Source: Gammaproteobacteria bacterium
Lineage (GTDB): Bacteria > Pseudomonadota > Gammaproteobacteria > SZUA-140
Reading direction: 5' to 3'
DNA length: 64,000 nucleotides
NCBI GenBank assembly: GCA_046754065.1
Contig: JBHHVB010000007.1
Location: 6,881-70,880, forward strand
Below, one piece after another: positions 10,763 to 59,236 of this stretch. A program made the translations under genes and the position numbers. Each line of letters opens with the position of its first letter. Position 1 is the stretch's first letter. The notes below the pieces were generated by a model. It was not told where the DNA came from. It did no database searches and saw only the letters and a program-made list of their open reading frames with translations.

Positions 10763-10763
10763 T

Positions 10764-13041: not shown

Positions 13042-13043
13042 GT

Positions 13044-13490: not shown

Positions 13491-13632
13491 AATACAACGA
13501 TTGCCAGGGAAATTAAAAATAAACTCATAAATATCAATATCATGGGTTAGCAATAGCAAACAGCAGCAGTGCTTTAAAAAAATAATAATGCGATAAAAGT
13601 TTTTGAACCCCCGAGTCTTTATGATTTAAGAA

Positions 13633-32860: not shown

Positions 32861-32913
32861 ACGTTAACCATGACCCAAATACCAGACCAGTTAATGCCAC
32901 AAGCAACAAACGA

Positions 32914-33534: not shown

Positions 33535-33563
33535 CTTGCAATACAACGGGTCTACATATTGTC

Positions 33564-36687: not shown

Positions 36688-37266
36688 ATGGAACATAAGT
36701 TACCCGAATTACCATACGCAAAAGATGCACTTGAACCCCACATCTCTGCCGAGACACTTGAATTCCATCATGGTAAACATCATCAAACTTATGTGACCAA
36801 CCTGAATAACCTCATTCCTGGTACCGAGTTTGAGAATATGTCATTGGAAGAAATTGTCAAAAACGCGTCCGGCGGTATCTTCAATAATGCTGCACAAATC
36901 TGGAATCATACTTTTTACTGGAATTGTCTGAGCCCTAATGGCGGTGGCAACCCCGAAGGCGCACTTGCGGATGCCATTAACAAGGCCTTTGGTTCTTTTG
37001 AAGATTTTAAAAAACAGTTCTCGCAAACGGCGATTACGACTTTCGGCTCCGGATGGGGGTGGCTGGTAAAAAATGCAGATGGATCTGTTGAACTAATGAG
37101 CACCAGCAACGCGGGAACACCCATGACCGAAGGGAAAACAGCATTACTGACCTGTGATGTCTGGGAACACGCTTATTATGTCGACTATCGAAATGCGAGA
37201 CCACAATACGTCGAGAATTTCTGGAACATCGTAAACTGGGATTTTGTTAGTCAGAATTACGCATAA
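36688..37266 (+). CDS. sodB: Superoxide dismutase [Fe]
   Basis: [32 protein letters not shown] and the C-terminal [11 protein letters not shown]. Confidence 0.93.
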
Positions 37267-37340: not shown

Positions 37341-37895
37341 ATGGATCCAGGCTGGATAATTCAAAGAATTGAATCGTATCGGCCTTATGACTCAACCGAG
37401 CATGGCTTTCATCAACAAATTTTAAAATTCATCTCGGACGAACCAGACTTTTGCGCTCGCAGCACGAAAACTGGACATATCACGGGCTCAGCCTGGGTGA
37501 CAAACGTCAACTACACGCATGCGTTATTGATTCATCATAAAAAGCTTGATCGATGGCTGCAACCCGGTGGACATGTTGAAAATGATACCAATATTCTGGA
37601 AACCGCGCTCCGGGAGGCCAAAGAGGAAACAGGTATCAACGATTTCCAGATTCCCCTGGAGAATATTTTCGACATTGATATACACACGATTCCGGCCATT
37701 AAAAAAGAGCGGGAACACTATCACTACGATGTCAGATTTCTTCTGGTTGCAGATGAATATTCTCCAATAACAATCAGTCATGAATCCAATGATTTGAAAT
37801 GGTTTTCATTAGCAGAAATATCTGCAATGAATGAGGGCCCATCAATTCAACGAATGGTTGATAAAACGTTAGCTAAATATGCGGGAATAAAATAA
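37341..37895 (+). CDS. NUDIX hydrolase
   Basis: Nudix box GGHVENDTNILETALREAKEETGI. Confidence 0.8.
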   Translation: MDPGWIIQRIESYRPYDSTEHGFHQQILKFISDEPDFCARSTKTGHITGSAWVTNVNYTHALLIHHKKLDRWLQPGGHVENDTNILETALREAKEETGINDFQIPLENIFDIDIHTIPAIKKEREHYHYDVRFLLVADEYSPITISHESNDLKWFSLAEISAMNEGPSIQRMVDKTLAKYAGIK

Positions 37896-41824: not shown

Positions 41825-42469
41825 TTATAATTGTGCTGACAGGTATTCGGCTACTGCCTTAATCTCCGCATCAGTCAGTTTTTTCGCAATGTCGGCCATC
41901 ATACCGCCAGGATCATTCGAGCGAGTACCTGCTCTTAAATCGGTCAGATTCTTGATAATGTAATCTCGATGCTGGCCACCAATAACTGGAAACTGAGATA
42001 TCGATGCAGATTTGCCTTTACCTCGTTCGCCATGGCAGTTGATACATCCATAGACGCCGCTTTTAGGATTACCGTTTTTAAAGAGCTTTTCACCCTGGGA
42101 AGCGAGCTTCTTGTTTACCTTCGTCAGTGGTTTTTTGGCCATTTTTTGTTTGGAAAAATAAGCGCCAATATCCTTGGCATCCTGCACACTTGCGACCGTA
42201 GCGGCCATGCCAGCCATCGTATCATTGTTGGCCCTTGCGCCGGTCTGGAATTCTCTAATCTGTTTTACAATATAGGCTTCATATTGTCCAGCCAGGCGAG
42301 GAAAGGTGGCATCTTGACTATTACCATCCACTCCATGGCAACCACCGCACAAAGCAGACTTGGCTTCTCCGGCTGCAGGATCACCAGCTGTTGCTGCAAG
42401 CGCGCCCCCCGCGAACACGATAGAAATCAAGAACCCAATGATAGTAAAACTGTATGAATTTCTGGTCAT
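41825..42469 (-). CDS. Cytochrome c4 (di-haem)
   Basis: Two CxxCH motifs (CGGCHG, CINCHG) and a signal peptide. Start set at ATG 42469 (MTRNSYSF...), which has an AAAAGGA SD. Confidence 0.85.
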   Translation of the reverse strand: MTRNSYSFTIIGFLISIVFAGGALAATAGDPAAGEAKSALCGGCHGVDGNSQDATFPRLAGQYEAYIVKQIREFQTGARANNDTMAGMAATVASVQDAKDIGAYFSKQKMAKKPLTKVNKKLASQGEKLFKNGNPKSGVYGCINCHGERGKGKSASISQFPVIGGQHRDYIIKNLTDLRAGTRSNDPGGMMADIAKKLTDAEIKAVAEYLSAQL

Positions 42470-42924
42470 AAGCAGGATCCTTTTGTTTTTATAATAGCCC
42501 ATCTGATGTTGTAATTTATTTTTTTGGGCCCACATGGTTTAAACAGCATAACCCTATCAATCTCTTAGCAATTCGTCAATCATGCGCTTGAATATTTCGG
42601 CACATTCTGACTCGTTAGCCATGCTGTAGATTCGCCTCCCAACGCCATAAATACCCATACTACCATTAATCCCGCGATAACCCTATCTATTTGACTCGTC
42701 GCGGGTTATTTGATCACCTGAATATTCTATCGGGGTATACAGTCCTTCGTATTCAGCCCCTACTGGCTTTGGGCCAATTTTAACAGTTTGAAATATAGTA
42801 TACGCCTAACATGGACTAAATAAGGGCAATCCGGGCATGGGTCGAGGCAAGCCCGTCATTTTGATATGGTTTCTGGACAACGACCGGAGACGATCTGGCT
42901 GGATACAGTCTAATTAATCAAGGG

Positions 42925-44313
42925 CTAGTAGGCATTCTTACCCACAAATCCTTTTATCAGTGTCATCAATATAATCTTGAAATCTAGCCACAATGACCAG
43001 TTACGAATATAGGCCAAATCATATTCCACCCGTTTTTGCATTTTGTCGAGCGTGTCCGTTTCACCACGCCAACCACTAATCTGAGCCAGCCCGGTTATTC
43101 CTGGTTTGACTTTATGTCTAAGCATATAACCACTTATGAGTTTACGGTATTGTTCATTATGCACAATCGCATGCGGCCTGGGTCCAACAATGGACATACT
43201 ACCCTGTAACACATTAATAAACTGAGGCAATTCATCCAGTGATGTCTTTCTTAAAAATGCGCCTATCGGGGTCACTCTGGGGTCAGATTTCGTCGCCTGC
43301 GCCACATCGATATCATTTTCACAAACCTTCATGGTCCTGAATTTCCATACTTCAATCTTGTTTCCACGCAAACCATACCGGTGTTGTTTAAACAATGCAG
43401 GTCCTGGTGAGGTCACTTTCACTGCAATCGCAATTAACATCATCGGGATAAATGTTACCAGTAAAATGATACATGCCATCACAAAGTCCTCGACCCGCTT
43501 GACCCAACCATCAACACCATAAAATGGCGTCTCAAAGATGTCGACTGTCGGAATATCTCCAACGCTTCCCCAGCTTGCATTCATCAGGTCAGATAAAAAG
43601 AAATCGGGGACCAGACAGACCGACACCGTTGTATCAGACAGTTCTGAGATAATACGCTGTATACGCTTCTCTGCACGCATAGGAAGTGTGATATAGACCA
43701 GATCCAGCCTCCCCTCGCGGGCATCCCTAATCAGGGTTTCCAGATTCCCAATCACCTGAACCGGCTCATTTACCAAAGGACGAGTCCCGGTCACCTTACG
43801 ATCATCATAAAACCCAATTGGGCGTAACCCCATCCAGGGGGCCTCGAGTACTGTGCGCGCCAATTGGGCACCCAGATCTCTTGCACCGACAATCGCAACA
43901 TGACGCATATTTGCACCATGTTCGCGGAGAGAACCCAAAATCATTTGCAGACTTGCTCGCCATACAATGACAGAGAAAGGCGCTACCAGAAACCAGCTTA
44001 AAACGAGGCGTCTTGAAAAATAGGCTGAGGTCTTCGTTGCATACGCCAAAAATAACAGGCCGAGGATCACCGCCATCCAGGCCAGCCAAATACGCACAAC
44101 CTCCTGGCGAATAGTGCCACCTCGCCAGGAACGATATAAATCCCGGGACTGACCGAAGAAAAAGAATAATCCAATCGACCAGGCAACTGCGAGGTTGTAA
44201 TTGTTATCCCATTGAATGCCAAATAATAATGCCAGGAGCCATAAGGATCCGCCGACCACTATCGCGTCGACAATGCGAATGATCGGAGCAAGTTTAGAAT
44301 GTTGCGGTTGCAT
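42925..44313 (-). CDS. Undecaprenyl-phosphate sugar phosphotransferase (WbaP/EPS priming glycosyltransferase family)
   Basis: Multi-TM N-terminus, a CoA-binding-like central domain and a C-terminal bacterial sugar transferase domain (PRPHAIVHNEQY, KPGITGLAQISGWRGETD). Start at ATG 44313 (MQPQHSKL...). Confidence 0.85.
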   Translation of the reverse strand: MQPQHSKLAPIIRIVDAIVVGGSLWLLALLFGIQWDNNYNLAVAWSIGLFFFFGQSRDLYRSWRGGTIRQEVVRIWLAWMAVILGLLFLAYATKTSAYFSRRLVLSWFLVAPFSVIVWRASLQMILGSLREHGANMRHVAIVGARDLGAQLARTVLEAPWMGLRPIGFYDDRKVTGTRPLVNEPVQVIGNLETLIRDAREGRLDLVYITLPMRAEKRIQRIISELSDTTVSVCLVPDFFLSDLMNASWGSVGDIPTVDIFETPFYGVDGWVKRVEDFVMACIILLVTFIPMMLIAIAVKVTSPGPALFKQHRYGLRGNKIEVWKFRTMKVCENDIDVAQATKSDPRVTPIGAFLRKTSLDELPQFINVLQGSMSIVGPRPHAIVHNEQYRKLISGYMLRHKVKPGITGLAQISGWRGETDTLDKMQKRVEYDLAYIRNWSLWLDFKIILMTLIKGFVGKNAY

Positions 44314-44852
44314 AACCCCCCTCAGATTTTGCGAACCCTGTTTTCTCTTGTTTGTCGTAGGTAACCCTGTACTATACAGCATTTTTTATAAATATTTATT
44401 TGGATTTTCTATGCCTTATAAATAGAGTCAACACAACTCTTCCCGAACCACTCTAAATCATGTCTCTATCCGTCCAGAGCTCTGGATAGACTCGTCAGCC
44501 ATTCGGCTTAAGATGACTTTCATCCTACCAATAGCAGTATCCATGCCACCCGAAAGTTACTGGCAAATATCGAAGCGCTAGTTGTTGTATATAATACAAA
44601 AAAAATCAACTTTCGCTTACCAGGACAGTTCATTAAGTAATAAAGGCAGCTCATGAAGTGTTAAAAGTATCGACACTTGCTGTTTGCAATCCAGGCTGTA
44701 AAAAATTACAGAGTTGTCGTATCACGTTAACAATCCCGTCATGTTCACAGGTCTAACGAGTGAACCCGGTTTAATCTACCAGTCGATATGCAGCTCGTTG
44801 TAGCCGCACCAATCAGATATTCTATTGACGACAGTTTATTGCCAAAGAAAGA

Positions 44853-45818
44853 CTAGCCTGCGGACGAGGCACTGCCAATACGATGATGAATCATTGCGAT
44901 ACCAATTGAGACGATAAGGCTTAGAATGAAGACCAGTGAAATGAGATGGTGTGAAGGTGAAATCTGCTTTTCCGGAACGACTGCAGGATCAATGACCTTA
45001 AATGAAAATTCACCCCTGGATTTTGCCAGCATAATGGTTTTTTGTTGCGCCTCAATTAATCGGTAAATTGCTTGCTGTATTTCCACGGAGCTGGTATTTT
45101 CCAACTGATCAGTTAGATATTTTATGCCTGTCTCCGATTCAAGTATTGTTTCCTCACGACGCTTTTCATTGACGCGTTCAACCAGTTTATTAGCCCATTC
45201 GGCCGCAATTTGGGGATCAGTCCAATCGATTGACAGGGTCACCAAACCAGTATTTCTATCCACATTGACTTTACGGATACGACTCGAGAACAAGTCATAT
45301 GCCTCTCGTTCGGTTGGAACCTCTGACAGATTTTTCCATCGCTTGTTATTCTCATCCCAGGCCTCTGAAAACAGTATTGGCATCAGATTTTCGTCTTTAA
45401 TGAATTGATCCGAGAGTTTTCTCGATTTCAATGCCGCAACCGCCTCTGCAGATGAATTATTCTTGAACATCGTATTGATACTGGCCAGGTCCTCAAGTCC
45501 GGAATACTGGGTAAAAAAAGAACCAAAGCCGGTACTCCTATTAGACTCAGTTGGCGCCAATAAAGTTTCAGCCCGATAAACCGGTTCCATCGTAACAAAA
45601 ACGATTGCTGCAACCAGTGAAGCAAGCAAAGAAAATATAAATATAAACGTTTTATATTTTTTAAGTACTTGCCAAATATCCAGCAAGTTTACTTCATCGC
45701 TGTCAGGGATGTTATTATCAGGGATATTCCGAGGTACACGAAAGGGTACTTCTTCCCGCAATCGTGAGACCGGGCTTTCCTCTTTATCTTTATCGACAAC
45801 CTTATACTCGGGAATCAT
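44853..45818 (-). CDS. Wzz/polysaccharide co-polymerase (chain-length determinant) family protein, short form
   Basis: N-terminal Wzz-like segment (EVNLLDIWQVLKKYKTFIFIFSLLASLVAAIVFVTMEPVYRAET) and a C-terminal TM segment. No kinase domain. Confidence 0.75.
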   Translation of the reverse strand: MIPEYKVVDKDKEESPVSRLREEVPFRVPRNIPDNNIPDSDEVNLLDIWQVLKKYKTFIFIFSLLASLVAAIVFVTMEPVYRAETLLAPTESNRSTGFGSFFTQYSGLEDLASINTMFKNNSSAEAVAALKSRKLSDQFIKDENLMPILFSEAWDENNKRWKNLSEVPTEREAYDLFSSRIRKVNVDRNTGLVTLSIDWTDPQIAAEWANKLVERVNEKRREETILESETGIKYLTDQLENTSSVEIQQAIYRLIEAQQKTIMLAKSRGEFSFKVIDPAVVPEKQISPSHHLISLVFILSLIVSIGIAMIHHRIGSASSAG

Positions 45819-45927
45819 AGGAGATACATATCACAGCTCTGCAGGAATGTATACCCACAAGCGAAACATTAACCTGTAACATACATTTGACACGCAAAGT
45901 TTATATAACAACCTCACAAGGACGAAG

Positions 45928-48585
45928 CTAAAAAACGTTGATCGCTTTCAAACTCGCAACCGTGATTGCCAACTGATAAATAACCTGTGAAATATCAGTA
46001 TATAGCTTGAGCTGACTAACCCGATCCACCTTGGGGGGAACCACGATGATATCCCCTGGCCCAATGTCAATCCTTCCACCAAACCAGTTTTGAGTGACGC
46101 TCACTGCACCATTGGCATGTACTACGTAAATTGCACTTTTATTACCGTTTTCATTCACCCCACCACTCAGGCGAAGATAATCTTTCTTTTTATATTTAGC
46201 CTTATAAAGATGAGAGGTTGGATAATACACCTCCCCCAAAACCGTGACCTCTTCATATTTCTGGGGAATATACAATCGATCACCGGGTTGAACCGTTACA
46301 TCCAAATCATCATTTCCGTCTAATATGGCCTTTAGCTCGATGACCATCCTCCCGGTTGCTTTCGCTTTACTAATCTCCTCCAGTAACGTCTCTCCTTCTA
46401 TCAGGGCCTTAGGATCACTCATTTCCTCTGCTTCAGCGATTTTAATATCTCGCTGCAATTGTTTGGTCAGTTTTTTCAACTGTTCCTGTTCACGAAGCCT
46501 GATCGATTCCCTGACAAATATGGCACCATCAACAAATGCGCTTTTAGTGATACCACCAGCCCTTTTCAAAACGGAGGATAATTTTTCGCTTTTTGAAACC
46601 GGATATTTACCCGGAAAAACGATTTCACCTTCAATCTGAACAACGCCAATCTCATTCCAGTTCGGGAGGCGTTTTATCACGACCTGATCATATGGCGACA
46701 GTTGAATATTGGACGCATCGTCTTTCATTACTGCTGCGAGTTCTATATCCAAACGATTGTGCTCACGATACTCATTATCAACGTTTACAAACCTCGTCAA
46801 TTCTGCATTAAGCAGATATGCGCTGTCTAACAAACCACCGGCAGCAAATATCAAATCTCTTATGGTCATTCCTGATGTCAGTGGAAAATCTCCCGAATGG
46901 TGCACCATGCCCTCGATAGATACGACGTGAAGCGGTTTCTCCGGCGTAGCTATCGCACTCGCATTTTCAATCAGTGGTTTTAAATAAGCTCCTCTATCCC
47001 CAAGAATATCAAACACATGAATTTCATCTCCCGATTCCAGTCTTGTATTGTATTCACCCTCTGGGTTTGACCATGCCAACGAAAGATTTGTGCTTACTAA
47101 CTCATAGGCATTGTTCAGCGGGTTTATCCGTCTTATAAGCACATAACGACTGTCCGCATCAATCGCAAGGTCTTGCACCGACTTAATGACGTCCGTCAAA
47201 CGCATATCCTGATGCCATTGAACATTGCCCGGTCTAACCACATAGCCACTAACCTTTACAGTCGCCGCAAAATTATCCAGCACAGAAAACACACGGATAC
47301 TATCACCAGCTTTTAACTCAAATTTGCCAGCATCTTTTGTGGAAAGATCCACGTCCAAAACGACTCTTTCCCTATTATTTTCTATTCTCTTTAGCTGCAC
47401 TCGCCCGATAAATGCATCAGGCATCAAACCACCCGACAGGTTGAAGACCTCACTCAAGGTCTTTTCATTTTTAAGCTCGTATATTGCAGGACGCCGGACT
47501 TTCCCAGAAATTGAAACCTTATTTTTGGCCGGAGGAACGAAAATGACATCCCCGGGTTGAAGCCTTGCGTCCCCACTGGTGTCCCCATCGAGCAAAAGAT
47601 CGTACAAATCCAGTTCAGAGACCAGTGATCCATTTCTCTTAAGCTGTATCTGGCGCAGGCTTCCGATGGTTTTAACACCACCGCTGCTTAACAGCGCATT
47701 GGTCAACGTAGACAAACTACTAACCGTATAGGAACCAGGGTGATTTACCTCGCCCAAAACAAAAACCCGAATGGATCTCAGTTTACCCAGTGTCACCGAC
47801 GCCTTCACGCCGATCAGCTGGCGACTTACTCGTGATTCAATTTCACTTTGTAGCTGTTTAAACTCAAGCCCGGAAACGGATATCGGACCAATACTGGGAA
47901 ATAACAGTTGCCCATCGCGGTTGATTGGCAATTCATACTGAGCATTTTCCTTGCCAAATAGCTGGACAACAACCGTATCACCTGGACCTACGACATAATC
48001 AGTCGGAACCGGAATATTGGTGACAGGCGTAAATGTATCTGGCACTGCCAGAAACAGTTCATAACCGAACTCTTTCAGTTCCTGGTCAATCATCAATAAC
48101 TTCACCTTCACATCCAGACCGGAAAAAACAGGCTCAGCCATTAGTCGTGCGGCAGCTTCTTTTTCACTGAGTCCCGACAAGTGAAAACGGCCAAAATTTG
48201 GTATGTAGATTGTTCCTGACTTATCAAGAACAAATAATTTTTTTTCAGGAAGACGACGCAGGATTTCTTTTAAGTAATCGTCGTCTGTCTCATCGCTGAA
48301 TTGTAAAATAAGGGTATCACCCACATGCATACGCGGGATTCCCGTGTAGTCATCCGCATCCAGCCTGGAGGGGACGATTGATCTTTCTTCTGTATTTTCA
48401 ACTTGTGATTTTTGGTCGCTGATCTGGTGTTGATTAACCAGCATATGATTTTCTGGAGAGTTCGCATATTTTTTTAGCGCTGCAATGTCTTCCTGGGAAA
48501 TGGTCGGCACTTCTGCTAGCCCGATCGGGGCATAACAAATGAAGCCGATAACAGCGAATATATATAATTGCAGGAGTTTAATCAT
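45928..48585 (-). CDS. Polysaccharide export protein, Wza-like with N-terminal extension and multiple SLBB (beta-grasp) domains (885 aa)
   Basis: Signal peptide. Poly_export motif YVVGPGDTVVVQLFGKENAQYELPINRDGQLLFPSIGPISVSGLEFKQLQSEI. Then several repeated GD-x-[IVL]-x-[IV]-P-type SLBB units. Confidence 0.78.
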   Translation of the reverse strand: MIKLLQLYIFAVIGFICYAPIGLAEVPTISQEDIAALKKYANSPENHMLVNQHQISDQKSQVENTEERSIVPSRLDADDYTGIPRMHVGDTLILQFSDETDDDYLKEILRRLPEKKLFVLDKSGTIYIPNFGRFHLSGLSEKEAAARLMAEPVFSGLDVKVKLLMIDQELKEFGYELFLAVPDTFTPVTNIPVPTDYVVGPGDTVVVQLFGKENAQYELPINRDGQLLFPSIGPISVSGLEFKQLQSEIESRVSRQLIGVKASVTLGKLRSIRVFVLGEVNHPGSYTVSSLSTLTNALLSSGGVKTIGSLRQIQLKRNGSLVSELDLYDLLLDGDTSGDARLQPGDVIFVPPAKNKVSISGKVRRPAIYELKNEKTLSEVFNLSGGLMPDAFIGRVQLKRIENNRERVVLDVDLSTKDAGKFELKAGDSIRVFSVLDNFAATVKVSGYVVRPGNVQWHQDMRLTDVIKSVQDLAIDADSRYVLIRRINPLNNAYELVSTNLSLAWSNPEGEYNTRLESGDEIHVFDILGDRGAYLKPLIENASAIATPEKPLHVVSIEGMVHHSGDFPLTSGMTIRDLIFAAGGLLDSAYLLNAELTRFVNVDNEYREHNRLDIELAAVMKDDASNIQLSPYDQVVIKRLPNWNEIGVVQIEGEIVFPGKYPVSKSEKLSSVLKRAGGITKSAFVDGAIFVRESIRLREQEQLKKLTKQLQRDIKIAEAEEMSDPKALIEGETLLEEISKAKATGRMVIELKAILDGNDDLDVTVQPGDRLYIPQKYEEVTVLGEVYYPTSHLYKAKYKKKDYLRLSGGVNENGNKSAIYVVHANGAVSVTQNWFGGRIDIGPGDIIVVPPKVDRVSQLKLYTDISQVIYQLAITVASLKAINVF

Positions 48586-48685
48586 ATGAATTTATAAGGT
48601 AATTCCATTTAATGAATAAGCTTTCATATTGCCACAATATTGGTAACGGTATAGCCTACCTCTTTTCGAAAGCGCTAACAAATCA

Positions 48686-50788
48686 TCAATGATTGAAATC
48701 TGTTAAAAAGCCCTGGTCACGGCTACCAAGCCCCATCGGCCTTTCTATCAGTTGGTACAGGTCTCCAGGTGAAACAACCATTTGACCCACATCACGCGTC
48801 CATGGCGATAGGGACAGAAAAGCGCTTTCATGCGTATCCCTGGTTAGCATCGAACTCAAAGGAACATACATCAATACACCGTGATCCTGGTAAGGGTCTC
48901 CAGGCCTACCTGGCGACGTATTATCGTTTCCGTTAGTATGGGTATACCATGCTCCGACTTCGACACCCGAACGAAAACGCCGCTTCATCTCAATTCGCAT
49001 CCCTTCATCTTTGGCCAAAAAACGTCCGACTTTTGCTGAGAGGGTTATATCATAACGAGAAAACCGGTGATGCAATCCCGCAAATCCAGATATAACTGAA
49101 TAGTCCATCAGGCTAAAGGTATCCCCCGGCCTTCTTTGTTTTAATTGATCCAGAGTTAGATCAAAAGCCCAGCTTCCACCATCTTTTATATATAGTAGCT
49201 GCCCCCCGTAGCCAGCGAACATCGACTCATAATAGCCTGCCGAGGCTCTTGCAAATAACCGCCTATCAATATTCAGGTACTTATTAAGAATCAACCTATC
49301 CAACCTTAACCTGTTGTTTTCACTATTGTACCTGGCAATATCCGTTCTTACGTGGGGCAATAAACTATTTGATTCCTGAGTTACATCGCTCACGTCTTCA
49401 ATCAACGTTAATCGTAATGACGAATCTATAAACAATGAATTACCAATATTTTTGTGAACATCGAGTAGAGAGAAGGTATCATAATGAAATACTCCACTCG
49501 GATCGTTAAAGAAAAACTGCATATTAAATGGTTTAAAGCGGAAGGGGCTATATGCCTGAACATCTCCCGACAAATCCGGTTGATCTGCATCCATTAGAGT
49601 GCGGGACTTCCCCGGATCATCAAAATACAAACCTTCGTCACTATTCTCGACCTTGTTAGTCGAAGACTGAGGATCATAATGATCAAAAGCAACAAGATCG
49701 ATAAGCTCACTGGCATCAACGCCCCGAGCAACCTCTTGGGCAAATCTGGAAGGATCCGTGATTCTATATGTTGCAACTGAAATATCGTTCAGCGTATAGG
49801 TAATCACAATCTCCTCGATTTCCTTCGGAACCAGGTTAACCACCACCTTGGCCGCCCGTCCGACTGCTCTGCTCATCAAGCTTATTCTGTTGTGCGATAA
49901 AGATACGCTAACTTTATGATTAGAGACATTCACAATCACTCGACCAAACCCCCGGCGAACTAGCTCCAAATATAATTTATCCGTTAGATTTACCAATGAT
50001 CTGGAAGTTTTACCTACGGTACCTGGCTCTGACAAACTGGTAAATGATTCAGGTTCATCAATTTTTGGTACAAATTCCTTTTTCATCAGGGGCGCCCCCA
50101 CATAGATATTAAACCCCACTGTATGCGAATTCATTGAAAGCTGCGCACCGTACCAATCGCCAGTATACTCAACGCCGTACCCGAGTTTACGCCTATGATT
50201 TCCTACCTCCGATAACTCTGAATGTGGATCCGTTCTATAGTCATTGGCATCGTACTCCAGAAGGAACGCAAATCGCCTGTTTTTGAACGGCCTGTAACGA
50301 GCCCCACCAAAAAGGCCTTTTATTCGTTCCTTCCCGTATCCGATTGATACATCAAGGGCATTTAACTTTTTGTTCGCAACCACGTACGTGGTTGAAAAAA
50401 GCTGTGTTCCGGTAAAGTCCTGAATACCCACCGCTAACTGAGGCCAATATTTTTTTTCTCCGAATAAAAGTAACTTGGCATCAAATGCCTTGTCCTTTAA
50501 GTCTCCGAATGCGGTATTGGGCCCAAGACCAGGAACATTATCAATCTCGGTATATCGAGCTGATAGTTCCAGATAAGGTAAAACAGTTACGCTGCTCCAC
50601 AGCGCTCGATAGGGTTCAGCCATACTGACTCCTAGCATGAACTGACCATCGCTGCTTAGACGACCATCAGGCATATTGATCAAGCCTGACTGACCAATTA
50701 GCGACGGACCGGCAAAAGCTGAACTTGCATATAAGAAAATGGATACATGAAGTGAACGAAAGAAGCGAAAGCAGGCACTGACCATCAA
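48686..50788 (-). CDS. YjbH/GfcD-family outer-membrane exopolysaccharide protein
   Basis: 700 aa with a signal peptide. N-terminal GQSGLINMPDGRLSSDGQFMLGVS...PYLELSARYTEI resembles the conserved YjbH start (GGvGLlqtPtAR...). Size matches E. coli YjbH/GfcD (~698 aa). Confidence 0.65.
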   Translation of the reverse strand: MMVSACFRFFRSLHVSIFLYASSAFAGPSLIGQSGLINMPDGRLSSDGQFMLGVSMAEPYRALWSSVTVLPYLELSARYTEIDNVPGLGPNTAFGDLKDKAFDAKLLLFGEKKYWPQLAVGIQDFTGTQLFSTTYVVANKKLNALDVSIGYGKERIKGLFGGARYRPFKNRRFAFLLEYDANDYRTDPHSELSEVGNHRRKLGYGVEYTGDWYGAQLSMNSHTVGFNIYVGAPLMKKEFVPKIDEPESFTSLSEPGTVGKTSRSLVNLTDKLYLELVRRGFGRVIVNVSNHKVSVSLSHNRISLMSRAVGRAAKVVVNLVPKEIEEIVITYTLNDISVATYRITDPSRFAQEVARGVDASELIDLVAFDHYDPQSSTNKVENSDEGLYFDDPGKSRTLMDADQPDLSGDVQAYSPFRFKPFNMQFFFNDPSGVFHYDTFSLLDVHKNIGNSLFIDSSLRLTLIEDVSDVTQESNSLLPHVRTDIARYNSENNRLRLDRLILNKYLNIDRRLFARASAGYYESMFAGYGGQLLYIKDGGSWAFDLTLDQLKQRRPGDTFSLMDYSVISGFAGLHHRFSRYDITLSAKVGRFLAKDEGMRIEMKRRFRSGVEVGAWYTHTNGNDNTSPGRPGDPYQDHGVLMYVPLSSMLTRDTHESAFLSLSPWTRDVGQMVVSPGDLYQLIERPMGLGSRDQGFLTDFNH

Positions 50789-50888
50789 TAGAATCGCTTA
50801 TTCATTAGACCGGATAGCGATGCGAAAACAGATCCAATTAAACATTAACCACTTTCAAAGAACCGGCCTGGTTAGAAGCTCCCGGGCT

Positions 50889-51266
50889 CTAATGCTGGGT
50901 TGTTGAACTGCCTCCGCCACCAGCGATAGCACCCAACGTTACAGCTATACCTGCACCAATTGCGATGGCCATTTTAGAAACGCCTGACCCGCTAATTTCT
51001 GGTAGCTTTGTCGCCGGAGGAATCGGCAATTCATCTGACAGTATAGTCGGTTCAGGTTGTATCTCCTCGACGACCGGTTCCCGTTGCGGTTTGACCGTAG
51101 GCTCATCCATCCCAATGGCCGCTGCCATTTGTATTTCTGTTTCGACAGAAGACGGGCGATCCCCGTCAACAAATTGCAGCAGTTCATCAAGAATACCCTC
51201 CGAGTCTGAATAAGCCGGTGCTGTAACAAAAAGGATAGTAATAAGAACTATTCGTTGAATCGCCAC
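50889..51266 (-). CDS. Small secreted Gly/Ala/Ser/Thr-rich protein (YjbE/GfcA-like)
   Basis: Start set to GTG 51266 with a strong AAGGAAGG SD, giving signal peptide (M)AIQRIVLITILFVTAPAYS. The C-terminus AIAIGAGIAVTLGAIAGGGGSSTTQH resembles the low-complexity tails of YjbE/GfcA. Confidence 0.5.
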   Translation of the reverse strand: MAIQRIVLITILFVTAPAYSDSEGILDELLQFVDGDRPSSVETEIQMAAAIGMDEPTVKPQREPVVEEIQPEPTILSDELPIPPATKLPEISGSGVSKMAIAIGAGIAVTLGAIAGGGGSSTTQH

Positions 51267-51350
51267 TGGATTGCCTTCCTTATGCGTCAATTAATGCGGA
51301 CAATTTATTCCACTATTACAATCAAATTCGGGATGTCCTAGACTAAAGTT

Positions 51351-53444
51351 TTAATGATATGTATGCACTACTTTGGTTATCAAGTTGGCATTATCACGTT
51401 TTTCTACATTAAATTCCACCTGGCCATAATACGACTTCAACTCGTCACTATTAACCCTTTGTACCCTGACGTGAAAATCTGCACTACCGCTAGCGAAACC
51501 ACCCTGTATTTGCCAAACTATTTTACCTAGAAAAAATTCTCTTTTTTCTGTCGCAGCGAATAACGCACGATAATCTTTCATAACACCGACAAGACTATCA
51601 TGATCATCCGTCACAACATCGTGTGAAAACAACGAGATAAACCGCGCCAAATTGCCTTCCTCGTAAAAGGTAACGAAGTTATCAATCGTCACTTCTAACT
51701 CATCCCGTGTGAGTGCTGTTTGCACTTCAACGGTTTCAGAATTGCCTGAAGGCTCTACCGGGCTATCGCTGCTTCCCGGCACCAAAAAATCATCAACAGT
51801 AGAATTGTCAGGAATTTCGGCAAACTCTCTATTTGAAGCGAACTCATTAATACTGTTTTCAATCTCAGCGTCTACAAACGCATTCTGAACATCAGGCATA
51901 ATAGTCGAAGTATCTTGAGATTGCTCAGGTTGATTGGGCTGATCGAGTAGCGGCCCGGATACCATACTCATCTCGGCATCCTGTTGAGCCGTCAGATGAT
52001 TGACAGGCTGATCCGCCCCAGGAGTAAAACGTTCAGCATTCAGGTTGGCTGTACTGATGGGCTGCAGGACTGAGTCATCGCTTACCGAAGCAGGATTCTT
52101 GCCCGACTGGATATCCCCATTATTATCAATATTTTTTGCAAATTCATTATCTTCAAGCACATTTGGGATATCCGCGGCTGGCAGTTTTTCAACGTCAGCG
52201 GTGCTGGAAGCAGGACTAACTGAGATAGGTCCCGAATCTATCGGTGCCTCCGGCTCCACCAAATCATTATTGACCGTTTGGGATTCTTGTTCTGCCATAC
52301 CCACAGAAAGCGATGCATTAACCTCTGTTTCAACAACAGGTTCTTCTGTATCAACAGGCGGCAGATTTGCTAACTGGTCGCGGTCGATACGGTCAGATTG
52401 TACTATATCCGTCGGCGGGATTTGTTCATCATCACTGGATGAAAGCATCGTAAAACCAACATACAAAAGAATGATAGCTAATGCCGTAATCCCTCCCACC
52501 ATTACTGGTTTACTATTAGAGGGTTGTGAATATCTGTCACGTGCAGTGGCAGCCCGCGTCTTTTTTTGGCCACTGCCTTGATAATCCAGACTTTCCTTTT
52601 TCAATACAATCGTAACATCCGATTGCATATTACTTTGTTTTGGAGAGTCTTCTGAATAATTGCTTTTTTGTTCGCCGATATTATCCAATTTTGGCGGGAC
52701 GACATCATTAACGTCATTTACCGCGTCATATGCGCGGTCAATATTCCTCGCAACATATGATTTACCTATTGGCTTGATTTTTGGTTGGGAGCCGTAGTCT
52801 TGCTCCAGTTCATCGGAACTGTCTTTATGCGGATGATTCACTTGATCAACGAGACTTCCCCCCGGCGAGGATAATACTGACGCTGAAAAAGACACAACGG
52901 GTTTTTCGTTAATCTGCTCACTAGAAGACGCACCAAACCCGGTTGCTAGATTTGAAGCGGTTGATGGCCTACTAAAATCGATGCCCTGAGCACGTAATTT
53001 ATTGTCATATAATCGCTTCTTTTCCGGATCTCGCAAAATACTGTAAGCGCGGTTAAGACGCATAGCATATTCAGCATTCCATTCATCGGCCTTATCGGAT
53101 TTATCCAGGTGAAATAAATGCAGCAAAAGTTTGTAGTTTCGACTTACTTCCTGGAGGGACGCTCCAGGGAATAAGCCTAGCATTCGATACCAGTTACCCC
53201 GGCTTGATAACAGCACACGTTCTGCAAAAAAGGTGACGGCAGCCAGCAGTTCTGTAGGCGGAACATTCTTGAATTCTGGAGAAAGTAAAACAGAGGGTTT
53301 CTGCGAATTACCTGCTGCCAATTCGAGCAATAGATCCACATCTTGCGGCAAATCAACAGAAGAATCTGTTAAATAGTCGTATTGCGAAGGAGCGCGGAAG
53401 AAATCCAGCGCCAGCTGTAAAATATTCTGTATCATTATTACCAA
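51351..53444 (-). CDS. Membrane protein with cytoplasmic degenerate J domain (HLD instead of HPD), single TM, acidic disordered periplasmic linker and C-terminal NTF2/SnoaL-like domain
   Basis: WYRMLGLFPGASLQEVSRNYKLLLHLFHLDKSDKADEWNAEYAMRLNRAYSILRDPEKKRLYD aligns residue-for-residue with DnaJ J-domain helices II-IV except HPD->HLD. TM VMVGGITALAIILLYVGFTML. C-terminal LTRDELEVTIDNFVTFYEEGNLARFISLFSHDVV has an NTF2-like pattern. Confidence 0.65.
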   Translation of the reverse strand: MVIMIQNILQLALDFFRAPSQYDYLTDSSVDLPQDVDLLLELAAGNSQKPSVLLSPEFKNVPPTELLAAVTFFAERVLLSSRGNWYRMLGLFPGASLQEVSRNYKLLLHLFHLDKSDKADEWNAEYAMRLNRAYSILRDPEKKRLYDNKLRAQGIDFSRPSTASNLATGFGASSSEQINEKPVVSFSASVLSSPGGSLVDQVNHPHKDSSDELEQDYGSQPKIKPIGKSYVARNIDRAYDAVNDVNDVVPPKLDNIGEQKSNYSEDSPKQSNMQSDVTIVLKKESLDYQGSGQKKTRAATARDRYSQPSNSKPVMVGGITALAIILLYVGFTMLSSSDDEQIPPTDIVQSDRIDRDQLANLPPVDTEEPVVETEVNASLSVGMAEQESQTVNNDLVEPEAPIDSGPISVSPASSTADVEKLPAADIPNVLEDNEFAKNIDNNGDIQSGKNPASVSDDSVLQPISTANLNAERFTPGADQPVNHLTAQQDAEMSMVSGPLLDQPNQPEQSQDTSTIMPDVQNAFVDAEIENSINEFASNREFAEIPDNSTVDDFLVPGSSDSPVEPSGNSETVEVQTALTRDELEVTIDNFVTFYEEGNLARFISLFSHDVVTDDHDSLVGVMKDYRALFAATEKREFFLGKIVWQIQGGFASGSADFHVRVQRVNSDELKSYYGQVEFNVEKRDNANLITKVVHTYH

Positions 53445-54162
53445 ACATCCACGATGTAGCTTTCCAATATATTGTTTATCGGTAGTCTATCAAGAAATTT
53501 GAATAGAGAGGCACTATATTTAGGGTACTATTACCCGGATTTCAAAAATTCCAGGGGAAGCTAGCTAAATCCAGGCTATTGACGAAGTTATTCAGTCTTT
53601 TTGTTCACTTTCCGATCAGTCCAACACAAAGCTATTTCTTTTTCAAATAGTTCATTCTGAGCAATTATACTATAATTTTCATAAAGATACGAAAAACCAG
53701 GAAAAGTAGCCAAAATACGGCAAAAGTCAGAATGATGCGTGGACAACCCATGGGTGCTGGCAAAACCGTCTGATGCGGTTTTTGAATTAATACAGGAACG
53801 TCGATATAACCGGGCTAGTTCATCCGCACGGCATTCCCAAACAGCGAGCATACTGAATTTAGAAAATCTTCCAAAGCATATCAATAAACAGTTCCTTTTG
53901 CCGATAGTTTTACCTAATCAGGGAGATAAATTTGAAATAATGGCTTGAGTCCAGCTCACACAAAGAGTCCAAAACAAGTTTTTAGTCTCCCCCCGTTTTT
54001 AATATAGAATGCCAAACTGTGAAATAATTTCATATGCCACATTGATAAAAACGAAACTCTAAACCAGGTTAAGATGTTGAGTCTTTTCCGACAAAGTGAA
54101 GTCAGTATCTTTTTAGACTGCACAACAATTCGCACTGCCTAACTTTTAAAAAAGGAAAATCC

Positions 54163-56133
54163 TTGTCAATTTTCTCAATCAAACACCCATTAATTATCAA
54201 AACAATTTCGTTAATATTTGCGGTTGTTCTTCTGGCAATAATGTTGCTACAGTTTAGCAGCAATGAATCCGTAGGCCGCCTCGCCAAGTTTCCCAAACAA
54301 CCTTTCTCACTTGCTGAGTTTGGTCTTTTCGATATGGGGATAGCTGACATCAATGATGATTTATACCTGGATATCTATACAGTTAACCATTCGGGAACAC
54401 AGAGCCTTCTTGTTAATCAAAGCGGCAAAGGATTCGTTGAATCTTTCAACTCAATGGATTTAGATCAGGATCCTTCGTTTCCCGGTCTGGTCGTCAGCCC
54501 GGATAAACCTGAATTTGATAAACCTGGGCTTTATATATACTGGCATGGACCCAAACTGGTTGTAGAGGCATATAGCCTGGTTAGATCTGAACCGGTAAAA
54601 GGTAGCATAGAATTGTTATCTCCAACTGAAGATCATGCTGACCCGGTCGTAAAATTCTCAAAGCGAGAAACTGCACTGGATCATGGTATCAATAAAACAA
54701 GTATCTCCTTCACCTTTGAAAAAGATGGCGTTTTCGCCATCAAACCCCTTTTACATGCACTGCCTATCCAGTTTGATATTGATAAAAAAGTTGAACCCGA
54801 ATCAATTTTTATCGGGCATAAACACATAGCACCTGATTTCAATTTTTTCTCCATAAACATGCGTGATCGCCATGGCATGTCCTGGGCAGATCTAACCAAT
54901 GACGGAAACACCGATTTATTAATTACACGAGGCGGACAGAGAGGGTGGATGGTACGCATGGATGAGAATTACTGGGATGAACTGTTTATCAGCGATGGTA
55001 ATAAATTTCATGAAACTGGCAAATCCGCTTCGCTACTGAAGGATGGATGTTCAGGCAGAAAAATAGCGTTAGTTGACTATAACAACGATAACAATCTCGA
55101 GTTTTATATCGTGTGCGGCAAGGGTCGCTCCTACCAACCTAACAAACTGTTTGCTCAGCAAGCAGATGGTACCTATTTTGATATTGCCAGCCAGGTCGGG
55201 TTAGATATAGGCCAGGATGGTAATTTTATCTGGACAGATGCCGATGCAGATGGGGATCTGGATATGTTTTGGGTTGATCACCAGTCATTTTATATCTATC
55301 AAAATCAATCTGGACATTTTGAAAAATTTCATCTTGGAACCAACCCAGCCCAACGAGTAAGCGAAAAACTCACAATCGCCGATTTTGATAACGATGGTGA
55401 TTTTGATATTTTTTCAGCATCGCCCGGCGGAAATGTATTATGCATTAACACCGGGAGCACCTATGCGATCACGAATCCCGTGCAGTGGGGGTTGCCTGCC
55501 AAAAGTGCCGTCGCAAACTGGGTAGACTATGACAACGATGGATTAAAAGACATACACTTTATTCCGAACGGAATATACCGCAATCTTGGAAACGGGAGAT
55601 TCAAACGAACATCTATATTATCGTTACAAGAAAACAAATACTCTTCCCGGCGCCTATATAAATCGAGGGTTTCGTGGTTTGATATCGACAACGATGGTAC
55701 GCGCGATGCAGTCATTGCCATGGAATTCGGTTTAAACCAAGGATTCCCGGCTTCAATTCTGGCCAGACTTAATGGTGACAGCAATCGCCTGGGAGGATTA
55801 AGGTCATTCTGGGAAGCCGGTCTGTATAGGAATGATCATACCGTTAATAACTGGCTTCAAATAGACGTGACCGGACCTCCAGGAAACAAACCTGGCATAG
55901 GCGCTAAAGTGACTGTTGAAACCAGCAACTTCATCCAGGTTCAGCAAGTCGGGGAAAATGAGGGAGCACGATACTCCCAAGGTCACTACCGATTATATTT
56001 TGGTCTCGGGAAGATGCATGAAATAAAATCCATTACCGTCGACTGGCCTGATGGGCGAGCACAATCCATACAATCGCAACAGCCAAACCAGTTAATCACA
56101 ATTGACTGGGTTAACGCCGATAGTGCAGTATAG
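54163..56133 (+). CDS. CRTAC1-family protein (FG-GAP/VCBS repeats + ASPIC/UnbV C-terminal domain), paralogue 1
   Basis: FG-GAP-like Asp-rich repeats (DFDNDGDFDIF, DADGDLDMFWVD). C-terminal UnbV_ASPIC signature NNWLQIDVTGPPGNKPGIGAKVTVETSN...YRLYFGLGKMHEIKSITVDWPDGRAQ. TTG start with AAGGAAAA SD. Confidence 0.75.
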   Translation: MSIFSIKHPLIIKTISLIFAVVLLAIMLLQFSSNESVGRLAKFPKQPFSLAEFGLFDMGIADINDDLYLDIYTVNHSGTQSLLVNQSGKGFVESFNSMDLDQDPSFPGLVVSPDKPEFDKPGLYIYWHGPKLVVEAYSLVRSEPVKGSIELLSPTEDHADPVVKFSKRETALDHGINKTSISFTFEKDGVFAIKPLLHALPIQFDIDKKVEPESIFIGHKHIAPDFNFFSINMRDRHGMSWADLTNDGNTDLLITRGGQRGWMVRMDENYWDELFISDGNKFHETGKSASLLKDGCSGRKIALVDYNNDNNLEFYIVCGKGRSYQPNKLFAQQADGTYFDIASQVGLDIGQDGNFIWTDADADGDLDMFWVDHQSFYIYQNQSGHFEKFHLGTNPAQRVSEKLTIADFDNDGDFDIFSASPGGNVLCINTGSTYAITNPVQWGLPAKSAVANWVDYDNDGLKDIHFIPNGIYRNLGNGRFKRTSILSLQENKYSSRRLYKSRVSWFDIDNDGTRDAVIAMEFGLNQGFPASILARLNGDSNRLGGLRSFWEAGLYRNDHTVNNWLQIDVTGPPGNKPGIGAKVTVETSNFIQVQQVGENEGARYSQGHYRLYFGLGKMHEIKSITVDWPDGRAQSIQSQQPNQLITIDWVNADSAV

Positions 56134-56169
56134 AAACATAAACTTATTCAGCAAATCCTGGAATAAAAA

Positions 56170-57138
56170 TTGCTCCAATCAAATCAAAAAAACGACTTAG
56201 CCGCCGACCAAAAGCCTATTTTGGTGACTGGTTCACCTCGCTCGGGCACAACCTGGGTGGGGCAGATGTTGGCAAAAGATCATCGCCTATATTACGTTCA
56301 CGAACCGTTTAATCCGGCAAGCAAGTATGTAAAAAAACATTATAATCTCAGGCTCAATCAACATTTCATACACATTTGTGATGAAAACAGCCAACAATAT
56401 TACTCAGCGATCACAGATTTAATAAACGGCAAATATAACTTGCTAAATGCACTTACCTACGCGCGTTCTCTTCAGGATCTTAGATCCACCTTCAGGGAAT
56501 GGCGGCAGACCACCGTCCAAAAGAACAAGGGCATATTACCTCTAATCAAGGATCCGATTGCCCTGATGTCTGCGGAGTGGCTGTACAACAACTTTGATAT
56601 TCGCTGCGTGGTATTGATCAGACATCCAGCTGCGTTTGTTTCAAGCATGAAACGATTAAACTGGGTATCACACCCTGAAAACTGGGCACTGTCTCAACCC
56701 CTGCTTATCCGGGATTTTCTTAAGCCACTGGAATCAGAGATCAATGCACTTCGGACTGGTGAGCATGACATTATTGAACGGGCAGCATTAGCGTGGAAAA
56801 TCCACCATTTAGTGATTTCGAAATACTATGCCAAGCACGAAGACTGGATATTTCTGCGTCACGAAGATATATCGAAAACCCCAATGGATTCCTTTGAGAA
56901 ACTATATCACAGCCTGGGATTGACATTTAATAATGAGATTCGACAAATCATAAACGAGCATAGCAGCGAAACAAACCCTGACAGCTCGACTGGAAAAGAC
57001 AAACCCATCAGACTCAACAGCCAGCAAAATATTTCAAGCTGGAAAAAACGTTTGGCATCGGACGAAGTAGCCCGAATACGAGACAGCGTTGAAGATATTT
57101 CAACTCAGTTCTATTCGGATGACGACTGGCTTACCTAG
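56170..57138 (+). CDS. Sulfotransferase-family protein
   Basis: PAPS 5'-phosphosulfate-binding loop LVTGSPRSGTTWVGQML near the N-terminus. TTG start. Confidence 0.7.
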   Translation: MLQSNQKNDLAADQKPILVTGSPRSGTTWVGQMLAKDHRLYYVHEPFNPASKYVKKHYNLRLNQHFIHICDENSQQYYSAITDLINGKYNLLNALTYARSLQDLRSTFREWRQTTVQKNKGILPLIKDPIALMSAEWLYNNFDIRCVVLIRHPAAFVSSMKRLNWVSHPENWALSQPLLIRDFLKPLESEINALRTGEHDIIERAALAWKIHHLVISKYYAKHEDWIFLRHEDISKTPMDSFEKLYHSLGLTFNNEIRQIINEHSSETNPDSSTGKDKPIRLNSQQNISSWKKRLASDEVARIRDSVEDISTQFYSDDDWLT

Positions 57139-59144: not shown

Positions 59145-59236
59145 TACCTTTGTTTTGTACTTTCTGTTCATCGCCATACCCTGTAACTCAGCACCAACAT
59201 TAACGGCAAACCACAAAACGTGGTTAGCCTTCCAAT

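Follow-up and report, generated by a model that had tools for sequence, protein, structure and literature searches.

A probable YjbH/GfcD-type exopolysaccharide export locus with a GfcC-like module fused to its exporter and a putative bitopic J-like/NTF2 accessory protein

A 64,000-nucleotide stretch of contig JBHHVB010000007.1 from an uncultured, metagenome-derived Gammaproteobacteria bacterium of the SZUA-140 lineage (assembly GCA_046754065.1, contig positions 6,881 to 70,880; hereafter the window) contains a cluster of six co-oriented open reading frames (ORFs) on the minus strand, between 42925 and 53444. We consider it likely that this locus represents the envelope-spanning export half, together with the priming enzyme, of a Wzx/Wzy-type exopolysaccharide (EPS) or capsule pathway, with a J-like/NTF2 protein and a small secreted protein serving as accessories. 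Its core is already described and consists of the outer-membrane protein YjbH, an outer-membrane polysaccharide export (OPX) protein of Class 2B, a kinase-less polysaccharide co-polymerase (PCP) and a phosphoglycosyl transferase (PGT). The undescribed part appears to be a bitopic protein with a J-like, receiver (REC) or AAA+ module, one transmembrane (TM) helix and an NTF2 domain, which together with its small partner accompanies YjbH/OPX and Wzc machines as an accessory. A first-pass annotation of this DNA had listed six minus-strand genes at these positions and recognised in them a Yjb/Gfc-related surface-polysaccharide export locus; the ORF list agrees with the former and the searches described below support the latter.

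The YjbH/GfcD Protein and the Class 2B-Type Exporter

Fifty of the window ORFs were scanned against Pfam and NCBIfam with curated cut-offs applied. The 700-aa product of 48686-50788 (minus strand) belongs to the YjbH/GfcD family of outer-membrane proteins (PF06082, 430.7 bits; cut-off 24), and in tblastn it matches Escherichia coli K-12 YjbH over residues 11-689 with 26% identity (E 1e-41), confirming its earlier assignment as YjbH/GfcD-like. It carries an N-terminal signal peptide and lacks a convincing lipobox. A total of 623 homologues were found, of which the best 120, those listed, share 42-49% identity with the window protein, and 302 relatives occur in species genomes. The literature on GfcD and YjbH describes a double beta-barrel, and the N-terminal halves of both proteins match the amyloid transporter FapF by fold recognition (PMC9603273, PMC8592465). 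Public gene calls for YjbH (645 aa) and for the neighbouring OPX protein (860 aa) are shorter than the longest ORFs of 700 and 885 aa. The longer starts give plausible signal peptides, and in YjbH they also regain N-terminal residues that are conserved in homologues.

The 885-aa protein encoded at 45928-48585 (minus strand) is a Class 2B-type OPX protein. It matches Poly_export (80.4 bits), SLBB (129.7 bits, in 3-6 stretches) and SLBB_2 (129.9 bits) in Pfam, it matches Wza in sequence and profile searches of the PDB, and its AlphaFold2 (AF2) model, with a mean predicted local distance difference test score (pLDDT) of 79, retrieves Wza in Foldseek with E 7e-19. The protein had been called a Wza-like exporter, and rightly so. 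Profile searches, on which the first-pass annotation had staked its reading of the locus, hence assign both the YjbH family and the Poly_export/SLBB family. The OPX protein starts with a signal peptide, an extra domain at ~aa 91-164 and the Poly_export domain at 192-266, continues with a chain of SLBB/beta-grasp domains and a helical hairpin (693-740), and ends with a GfcC/YjbG-like module (~aa 732-871) and a putative terminal helix (865-881).

The C-terminal ~150-230 residues of the exporter contain this GfcC/YjbG-like module as a fused part. Comparison of the OPX family alignment (40 homologues) with E. coli YjbG by hhalign aligned OPX residues 732-871 to YjbG 98-241 with 93.7% probability (E 1.9e-7). 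The PDB profile search identified GfcC (3p42) at positions 738-864 with E 0.047, while Foldseek aligned the OPX model to the same structure over ~234 columns with E 2e-9, a target-normalised TM-score of 0.58 and a probability of 1.0. Weak matches to Caps_syn_GfcC_N and Caps_syn_GfcC_C were found in 15/40 and 13/40 OPX homologues, respectively. Weak cupin and JmjC matches in the OPX C-terminus were judged to be beta-sandwich noise, as the region aligns with GfcC. The F and G genes (GfcB/GfcC) had been noted as missing from the locus. This is correct for YjbF/GfcB, which is undetectable by tblastn, but not for GfcC/YjbG, which is fused to the exporter rather than absent. Searches of all 64 kb with E. 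coli YjbF and YjbG by tblastn gave best E-values of 6.8 and 1.0, respectively, the sensitivity for YjbF being that of BLAST, and the intergenic gaps of 60-110 bp in the export locus are too small for separate yjbF or yjbG genes.

OPX proteins are divided into three classes, and Class 2B has the architecture Poly_export-SLBBn-GfcC-(Wza_C) with a median length of 824 aa and is typified by KpsD (PMC9603273). In this class the GfcC-homologous region lies beyond the SLBB domains and outside the part homologous to Wza, as it does in the window protein. A C-terminal Wza_C-like helix that spans the outer membrane distinguishes Class 2B from Class 2A proteins. YjbH/GfcD homologues have been found beside 18-19 Class 2B OPX genes (PMC9603273). 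The roughly doubled size of the Wza-like protein, which had been noticed correctly, is therefore explained by a known Class 2B architecture (~820-900 aa) with a fused GfcC module.

Co-Polymerase and Priming Transferase

The gene downstream of the exporter (44853-45818, minus strand) encodes a kinase-less Wzz/GNVR co-polymerase of 321 aa that exceeds the cut-offs of both PF02706 (37.4 bits; cut-off 25.5) and PF13807 (30.7 bits; cut-off 27.7), in agreement with its earlier description as Wzz-like. Its two TM segments are located at ~aa 54-81 and 286-315. A C-terminal bacterial tyrosine (BY) kinase domain was not detected, as the protein ends at residue 321 and has no AAA_31, CbiA or ParA match in Pfam or NCBIfam. 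The scanned ORFs likewise gave no homologue of Wzb/Etp. The likeness to the gfcABCDE/Etp-Etk system that had been proposed is thus supported by the YjbH/GfcD and Wza-family genes, but not by the Etp/Etk (Wzb/Wzc) pair, which is absent.

The last gene of the locus (42925-44382, minus strand) encodes a WcaJ-type polyprenyl-phosphate hexose-1-phosphate transferase of 462-485 aa, depending on the start, with four hydrophobic segments and a cytoplasmic catalytic domain. It scores 555.7 bits with TIGR03023 (WcaJ; cut-off 410.75), 226.9 bits with Bac_transf and 145 bits with CoA_binding_3. The enzyme had been classified as WbaP-type, but its score with the corresponding model TIGR03022 (255.6 bits) is below the cut-off of 403 and the WcaJ model passes. 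The gene is preceded by a non-coding spacer of 470 bp (44383-44852), which probably holds the priming gene's own promoter region. A gap of 470 bp had been reported previously; this length fits the ORF start at 44382, but with the start listed at the time (44313) the gap would be 539 bp. A spacer of similar length precedes the orthologous transferase gene in a related metagenome-assembled genome (MAG; locus L014), and the alignment of the two spacers contains no convincing block that would indicate a conserved leader upstream of the PGT gene.

None of the 50 ORFs scanned encodes a glycosyltransferase, a Wzx flippase or a Wzy polymerase, in line with the earlier statement that the window lacks these genes. 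Outside the scan lay seven ORFs of 120 aa or more without overlap to a longer one, none of them exceeding 232 aa (6954-7535, 7542-8093, 13044-13490, 17684-18091, 32836-33534, 36688-37266 and 37341-37895).

Conservation across Related Loci

Metagenomic relatives of the window YjbH and a scan of a genome collection with the YjbH-family alignment provided 83 related loci (L004-L086), in which gene presence was scored by tblastn with the window proteins. A large OPX gene is present within 2 kb downstream of yjbH in 35 of the 83 loci, and a Wzz gene follows the OPX gene in 26 of these 35. Within the gammaproteobacterial clade, the OPX and Wzz genes follow yjbH within ~100 bp. The J/NTF2 gene is located upstream in 17 of the 29 OPX-linked loci with enough upstream sequence, compared with only 2 of the 34 yjbH loci in which no OPX gene is adjacent. 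As many independent genomes show this gene order, it is not a chance juxtaposition.

In the cultured bacterium Sulfurifustis variabilis (AP014936.1), a REC-NTF2 gene (1,581,098-1,583,017) directly precedes the genes for a small protein ending in STTQH, YjbH, OPX and PCP, in this order. Beyond these, the cluster continues with a Polysacc_synt gene of the Wzx family, genes for a methyltransferase and glycosyltransferases, a gene for a 439-aa protein without annotation, possibly Wzy, and a PGT gene. This synteny places the export module in a Wzx/Wzy-type pathway. The locus L014 shows the arrangement of the window, including the same dihaem cytochrome c gene after a PGT orthologue with 68% identity, but differs in that gmd and an fcl-like gene separate wzz from the PGT gene. 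Since L014 shares the layout, the glycosyltransferase-less arrangement is conserved in the lineage and is not an assembly accident. In L014 the OPX orthologue (4211-6735) is split into two overlapping ORFs, reflecting either a frameshift or an assembly error.

The apparatus had been suspected to be reduced or remodelled. This applies to the lineage of the window and to L014, where no more than the export genes and the priming gene have stayed together, but not to S. variabilis, in which the module heads a fuller cluster. A more radical version of this idea is that the locus is a decaying remnant, i.e., that the export genes were stranded after the loss of biosynthetic genes and the polymer is not made. 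Glycosyltransferase, wzx and wzy genes were indeed not found among the ORFs scanned in the 64 kb, and the gmd and fcl-like genes of L014 are missing between wzz and the PGT gene in the window. Nevertheless, all six ORFs are intact and full-length compared with their homologues, the same glycosyltransferase-less arrangement is present in a second MAG lineage with a PGT identity of 68%, and split EPS clusters are documented, those of Myxococcus xanthus being up to ~1 Mbp apart (PMC9603273). Decay is thus a most unlikely explanation, and a functional export module with its remaining genes elsewhere is the preferred one.

The J-like/NTF2 Protein

The first gene of the locus (51351-53444, minus strand) encodes a putative bitopic inner-membrane accessory protein, which is 694 aa long when started at the ATG at 53435, as in the NCBI call, and 697 aa long when started at the TTG at 53444. 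The prediction of a J-domain membrane protein at this position is confirmed by PF00226 (DnaJ, 38.9 bits; cut-off 27.8) and a single TM segment. In the 697-aa numbering, a conserved N-terminal extension and the J-like domain occupy ~aa 4-155, with the J domain proper at 84-147, followed by one TM helix (~aa 311-337), an acidic, Pro/Ser-rich disordered linker and an NTF2-fold domain (~aa 578-697). As the single TM helix lies between the J-like and NTF2 domains, the N-terminus is predicted to face the cytoplasm and the C-terminus, with the NTF2 domain, the periplasm.

The AF2 model of the NTF2 domain (pLDDT 96, predicted TM-score 0.87) shows the alpha+beta cone fold and superimposes on structures of the NTF2 superfamily with TM-scores of 0.82-0.85 and a root-mean-square deviation of 1.7-1.8 Å in Foldseek. 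In profile searches the domain matches ketosteroid isomerases (E 6e-4), and SnoaL_2 is matched weakly in 27/32 family members, all Pfam matches being under the gathering score. An exhaustive HMMER search identified 2520 representatives of the J/NTF2 family at E<1e-3 and 732 clusters at E<1e-10. The N-terminal ~150 residues together with one or two copies of the ~120-residue C-terminal domain are found in 139/149 top representatives.

The HPD tripeptide between helices II and III of J domains is needed to stimulate Hsp70/DnaK. In the window protein this motif reads HLD (within LFHLDKSD), and in the family alignment close relatives contain Y, F, S or M at the His position and L, Q or F at the Pro position; an intact HPD is present only in distant members. 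The cytoplasmic module is also exchangeable. A REC domain replaces it in L004, L006 and S. variabilis (hhalign probability for the latter 99.9%), and the NTF2 end is kept. In P0137, the XrtA/PEP-CTERM-associated AAA+ ATPase TIGR03015 (361 bits; cut-off 324.5) is combined with a J-like domain and the NTF2 end, and the gene is followed by a small ORF and yjbH. At 10001-13699 of locus L087, a gene for a 1232-aa protein joins the TIGR03015 ATPase to a J-like domain and to two NTF2 domains. A 91-aa ORF and yjbH come next, and genes for a NusG paralogue and a MarR-like protein lie between yjbH and the OPX gene of this locus.

Members with an intact HPD directly follow genes for a CpsB-like phosphatase and a Wzc BY-kinase in 3/3 loci examined (L088, 3248-4690; L090, 4951-6411; L091, CP038033.1, 8001-9548). 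These members are in turn followed by a protein of ~410-435 aa, with weak TPR/PrsT-like matches in two of the loci and none in the third. In every locus examined, the J/NTF2 gene adjoins either YjbH/OPX or Wzc genes, and the proximity of the HPD-type members to Wzc kinases means that the whole family tracks PCP/OPX export machines. Literature searches found no paper describing a pair of J-domain/NTF2 protein and small protein at YjbH or polysaccharide-export loci, and NCBIfam contains no model for such a pair.

The J domain could also point to a different role, in which the protein acts as a DjlA-like membrane co-chaperone that recruits DnaK to a signalling protein and thereby regulates capsule synthesis at the transcriptional or post-translational level. 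When E. coli DjlA is overproduced, colanic-acid capsule is induced via Rcs, an effect that requires DnaK and the histidine of HPD (PMC11709261). Both proteins possess a J-type domain that is tethered to the inner membrane by one TM helix and linked to capsule or EPS, HPD is kept in distant members of the J/NTF2 family, and the REC-containing variants imply a signalling input. The topology, however, is opposite: DjlA has an N-terminal TM helix, hardly any periplasmic portion and a C-terminal J domain in which HPD is intact, while the window protein has an N-terminal J-like domain with HLD and a ~360-residue periplasmic portion ending in the NTF2 domain. The sequence relationship is confined to the J domain, the HPD motif is lost in the window protein and its close relatives (HLD, Y/F-L/Q-D), and the most conserved part of the family is the periplasmic NTF2 domain, which is absent from DjlA. 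A Rcs-type partner is likewise absent from the window. A DjlA-like function is thus quite improbable, and the properties of the protein agree better with an accessory of the export machine.

The arrangement of a cytoplasmic module, one TM helix and a periplasmic domain at an outer-membrane secretion complex presumably resembles that of ExeA and VirB8, the TIGR03015 AAA+ protein being what we take to be an ExeA/GspA-like protein. Unlike the TIGR03015 proteins, the window protein has no ATPase, and with VirB8 it has the fold class alone in common, without sequence similarity.

The Small Secreted Protein

The gene between those for the J/NTF2 protein and YjbH (50889-51290, minus strand) encodes a small, putatively secreted or anchored protein, whose length is 125 aa if translation starts at the ATG at 51266 and 133 aa if it starts at the TTG at 51290. 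Its signal peptide is followed by a Q-x-A-A-A-I-G motif and, after a spacer rich in Pro, by a hydrophobic stretch rich in Gly and Ala and the C-terminus GGGG-SSTTQH. Two hydrophobic segments are present. Residues A48, A50, I51, G52, G104, A108, G118 and the terminal His are invariant in alignments. In 25 or more related loci, some of them betaproteobacterial, the ORF immediately 5' of yjbH has the same tail.

With its signal peptide, its Gly/Ser/Thr-rich tail and its location directly upstream of yjbH, the small protein occupies the position of YjbE/GfcA. It had been described as YjbE/GfcA-like, which is appropriate for position and composition but not for sequence homology: hhalign with YjbE gave 19% over 13 columns, and the tblastn match of E. 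coli YjbE (E 5.6) lies elsewhere in the window. No family match exists in Pfam or NCBIfam, and 12 members searched at E<=10 did not retrieve the YjbE-family model.

Eight betaproteobacterial yjbH loci (L035, L037, L041, L043, L044, L059, L082 and L086) have no adjacent OPX, Wzz or J gene. The upstream ORF in these loci ends in ...GGGGS(D)TTTHH, and in L035, L041, L043 and L044 its longer N-terminal part contains GIRGTDF or GVRGTDF.

The pairing of this small ORF with yjbH in the absence of an adjacent OPX gene, in betaproteobacterial loci and in L005, raises the possibility that the J/NTF2 protein, the small protein and YjbH form a separate exporter for protein- or lipid-linked cargo, with the small, possibly glycosylated protein as cargo that leaves, or becomes anchored, through the YjbH double barrel, and with OPX, Wzz and PGT as a neighbouring but independent polysaccharide route. 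The resemblance of the N-terminal halves of YjbH and GfcD to FapF fits such a role, and an earlier proposal sees in GfcD an alternative exit for a polymer linked to protein or lipid, for which GfcA might be the acceptor (PMC9603273, PMC8592465). In addition, the tail of the small protein, in which the terminal His is invariant, has the appearance of a signal for recognition or modification. This reading is improbable, however, as the OPX and Wzz genes lie within ~100 bp of yjbH in 35 loci of the gammaproteobacterial clade, the J/NTF2 gene tracks the OPX-linked form of the locus (17/29 versus 2/34), and the OPX protein itself carries a module related to GfcC, a known binding partner of GfcD. 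A single polysaccharide export machine that includes both YjbH and OPX accounts better for these observations.

Relation to Known Export Systems

The closest described arrangement is that of the capsular polysaccharide (CPS) locus of Vibrio parahaemolyticus, in which yjbH-yjbG-yjbF occur with wbfE, wbfF (= kpsD) and wzz, and Vibrio CPS loci in general combine yjbH with a gene named wbfF or kpsD and with wzz (PMC7829505). Class 2B systems (KpsD; Vibrio WbfF/OtnA) resemble the window in the architecture of their large OPX protein (~820-900 aa), which combines Poly_export with several SLBB domains and has a GfcC-like module at the C-terminus; their terminal helix has a putative counterpart in the window protein (PMC9603273, PMC7829505). 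The Vibrio and window systems also share the combination of OPX with a kinase-less PCP (Wzz/OtnB) and a nearby YjbH/GfcD-family gene. The Vibrio loci keep separate yjbG and yjbF genes (yjbH-yjbG-yjbF/wbfBCD), neither of which is separate in the window, whereas the window locus has a J-like/NTF2 bitopic protein and a distinct small protein ahead of yjbH. KpsD operates in ABC-transporter pathways, while the window module contains a WcaJ-type PGT and is accompanied in Sulfurifustis by a Wzx-family flippase gene.

The similarity to yjbEFGH and gfcABCDE-etp-etk of E. coli comprises a full-length YjbH/GfcD homologue, preceded by the gene for a small signal-peptide protein with a Gly/Ser/Thr-rich tail, as well as an exporter of the Wza family and a GfcC-like module, all in the same transcriptional direction. 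Unlike gfcABCDE-etp-etk, the window has no YjbF/GfcB, Etp phosphatase or Etk kinase, its GfcC is fused to an OPX protein that belongs to Class 2B, in contrast to the Class 1 protein GfcE, and its small protein shows no detectable homology to YjbE.

Proposed Mechanism of Export

In the proposed pathway, the WcaJ-type transferase, as its equivalog match suggests, would attach hexose-1-phosphate, probably glucose-1-phosphate, to undecaprenyl phosphate. By comparison with the Sulfurifustis cluster, completion of the repeat unit, flipping and polymerisation would depend on genes outside the window. The kinase-less Wzz/GNVR protein in the inner membrane could then pass the polymer to the Class 2B OPX protein, whose stacked beta-grasp rings are expected to span the periplasm and whose C-terminus carries the GfcC/YjbG-like module and the putative terminal helix. 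The fused module may dock OPX onto the YjbH/GfcD barrel, by analogy with GfcB, GfcC and GfcD of E. coli. These three proteins form a complex, and a GfcC-GfcD fusion occurs as OtnG in Burkholderia (PMC8592465). With the GfcC-like module built into the exporter, a separate YjbG would be unnecessary.

The analysis shows the family assignments, the GfcC fusion, the NTF2 fold, the degenerate HPD motif and the conservation of the module, whereas the contacts between these proteins, the way a signal would travel and what the small protein does are inferred. The bitopic protein would combine a periplasmic NTF2 domain with an exchangeable cytoplasmic input, which is a degenerate J domain in the window and a REC domain or an AAA+ domain plus J domain in relatives. 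Most likely it is anchored in the inner membrane and assists the assembly or gating of the YjbH/OPX machine in response to a signal from the cytoplasm, possibly taking the place of the lipoprotein YjbF/GfcB, which is missing here. The small GGGG-STTQH protein could be a periplasmic partner of the bitopic protein or an acceptor or anchor that is exported via YjbH, as was proposed for GfcA.

Several observations weigh against assigning the locus to a Wzx/Wzy-type pathway with these accessories. The window OPX protein itself has no Pfam GfcC match at E<=1, its GfcC match partly reflects beta-grasp domains that are common to GfcC and OPX proteins, and its terminal helix (865-881) is modelled with low confidence (pLDDT ~50-66) and has no Wza_C (PF18412) match. 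Class 2B is typified by KpsD of ABC-transporter pathways, and the pathway type therefore depends on the Wzz/GNVR protein, the PGT and the synteny in Sulfurifustis. The J/NTF2 gene is absent in 12/29 OPX-linked loci and is thus not obligatory, HLD speaks against a classical stimulation of DnaK and leaves the cytoplasmic input undefined, and the missing YjbE homology of the small protein counts in the same direction. Promoter and terminator motif counts were not above those of shuffled controls, so that these scans are uninformative on co-transcription, and the 470-bp spacer sets the priming gene apart. For the whole clade, the support is computational, i.e., based on sequence and predicted structure.

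A broader proposal, which is tentative and rather doubtful at present, is that the J-like/REC/AAA+-TM-NTF2 protein and the small GGGG-STTxH protein constitute a widespread, unrecognised trans-membrane coupling device for polysaccharide export. Its exchangeable inputs (chaperone-like, phosphorylation or ATP) would control assembly or gating of YjbH/GfcD-OPX via the NTF2 domain, replacing GfcB. If true, this device would give the long-enigmatic YjbH/GfcD family a defined and regulated partner. The function of YjbH/GfcD and their small partners is still obscure after ~20 years, even in the capsule systems of E. coli and Vibrio. The clade would represent a simplified and naturally re-wired YjbH system, with GfcC joined to the exporter, GfcB gone and a bitopic NTF2 protein in its place, and as such it points to the contacts that matter, namely those between the GfcC module and YjbH and between the NTF2 domain and the export machine. 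It also suggests that signals control export directly, beyond synthesis. The presence of the module in the cultured and fully sequenced S. variabilis makes the hypothesis testable. For the window itself, the outcome is that the annotation of an EPS export locus, in itself a fairly ordinary one, has been corrected.

Other Features of the Window

The remainder of the window has a housekeeping character and encodes Rnf, methionyl-tRNA synthetase (MetRS), Mrp, Nth, enzymes of arginine and oxo-acid metabolism and cyclic di-GMP (c-di-GMP) proteins. The latter include a DAHL-PAS-GGDEF-EAL protein (18253-21177, minus strand) and a REC-GGDEF response regulator (33531-34517, plus strand), which are possible c-di-GMP inputs to EPS production. 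The export locus is flanked at 54163-61168 by genes for three paralogous FG-GAP/UnbV_ASPIC proteins and a sulfotransferase (56170-57138). A sulfotransferase is also encoded near the homologous locus L004 and a sulfatase near L021, which hints at a sulfated polymer.

A connection of the locus to the PEP-CTERM/exosortase system was considered and rejected, as no exosortase is encoded among the ORFs scanned in the window and no PEP-CTERM-like tail is present in any window ORF of 80 aa or more; in addition, OPX, PCP and PGT score below the cut-offs of the NCBIfam models specific to PEP-CTERM systems, and TIGR03015 is carried only by a distant member of the J/NTF2 family. An Rfam search of 42000-54500 at E<=1 returned no match. 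The sole GGCGGTAG sequence in the window, a candidate ops/JUMPstart element, is located at 9944, outside the locus, and corresponds to chance frequency; it was therefore discarded.

Three further genes have unusual architectures. The 563-aa dCTP deaminase-like protein encoded at 1801-3492 (minus strand) is broken by an intein splicing domain (PF22769 and PF14890). The 1011-aa product of 23711-26746 (minus strand) is a fusion of two lipoyl domains, an E2 acyltransferase core and a complete E3 dihydrolipoamide dehydrogenase, and its gene adjoins those for E1 alpha and beta. Finally, a 1344-aa DUF6242/DUF11 surface protein (13633-17667, plus strand) terminates in ...GIGGLDYSTMLLLFLGSVLVTQRRTKTKKAR; this end, in which a Gly-Gly motif is followed by a TM helix and a cluster of basic residues, resembles a sorting signal of the GlyGly-CTERM type.

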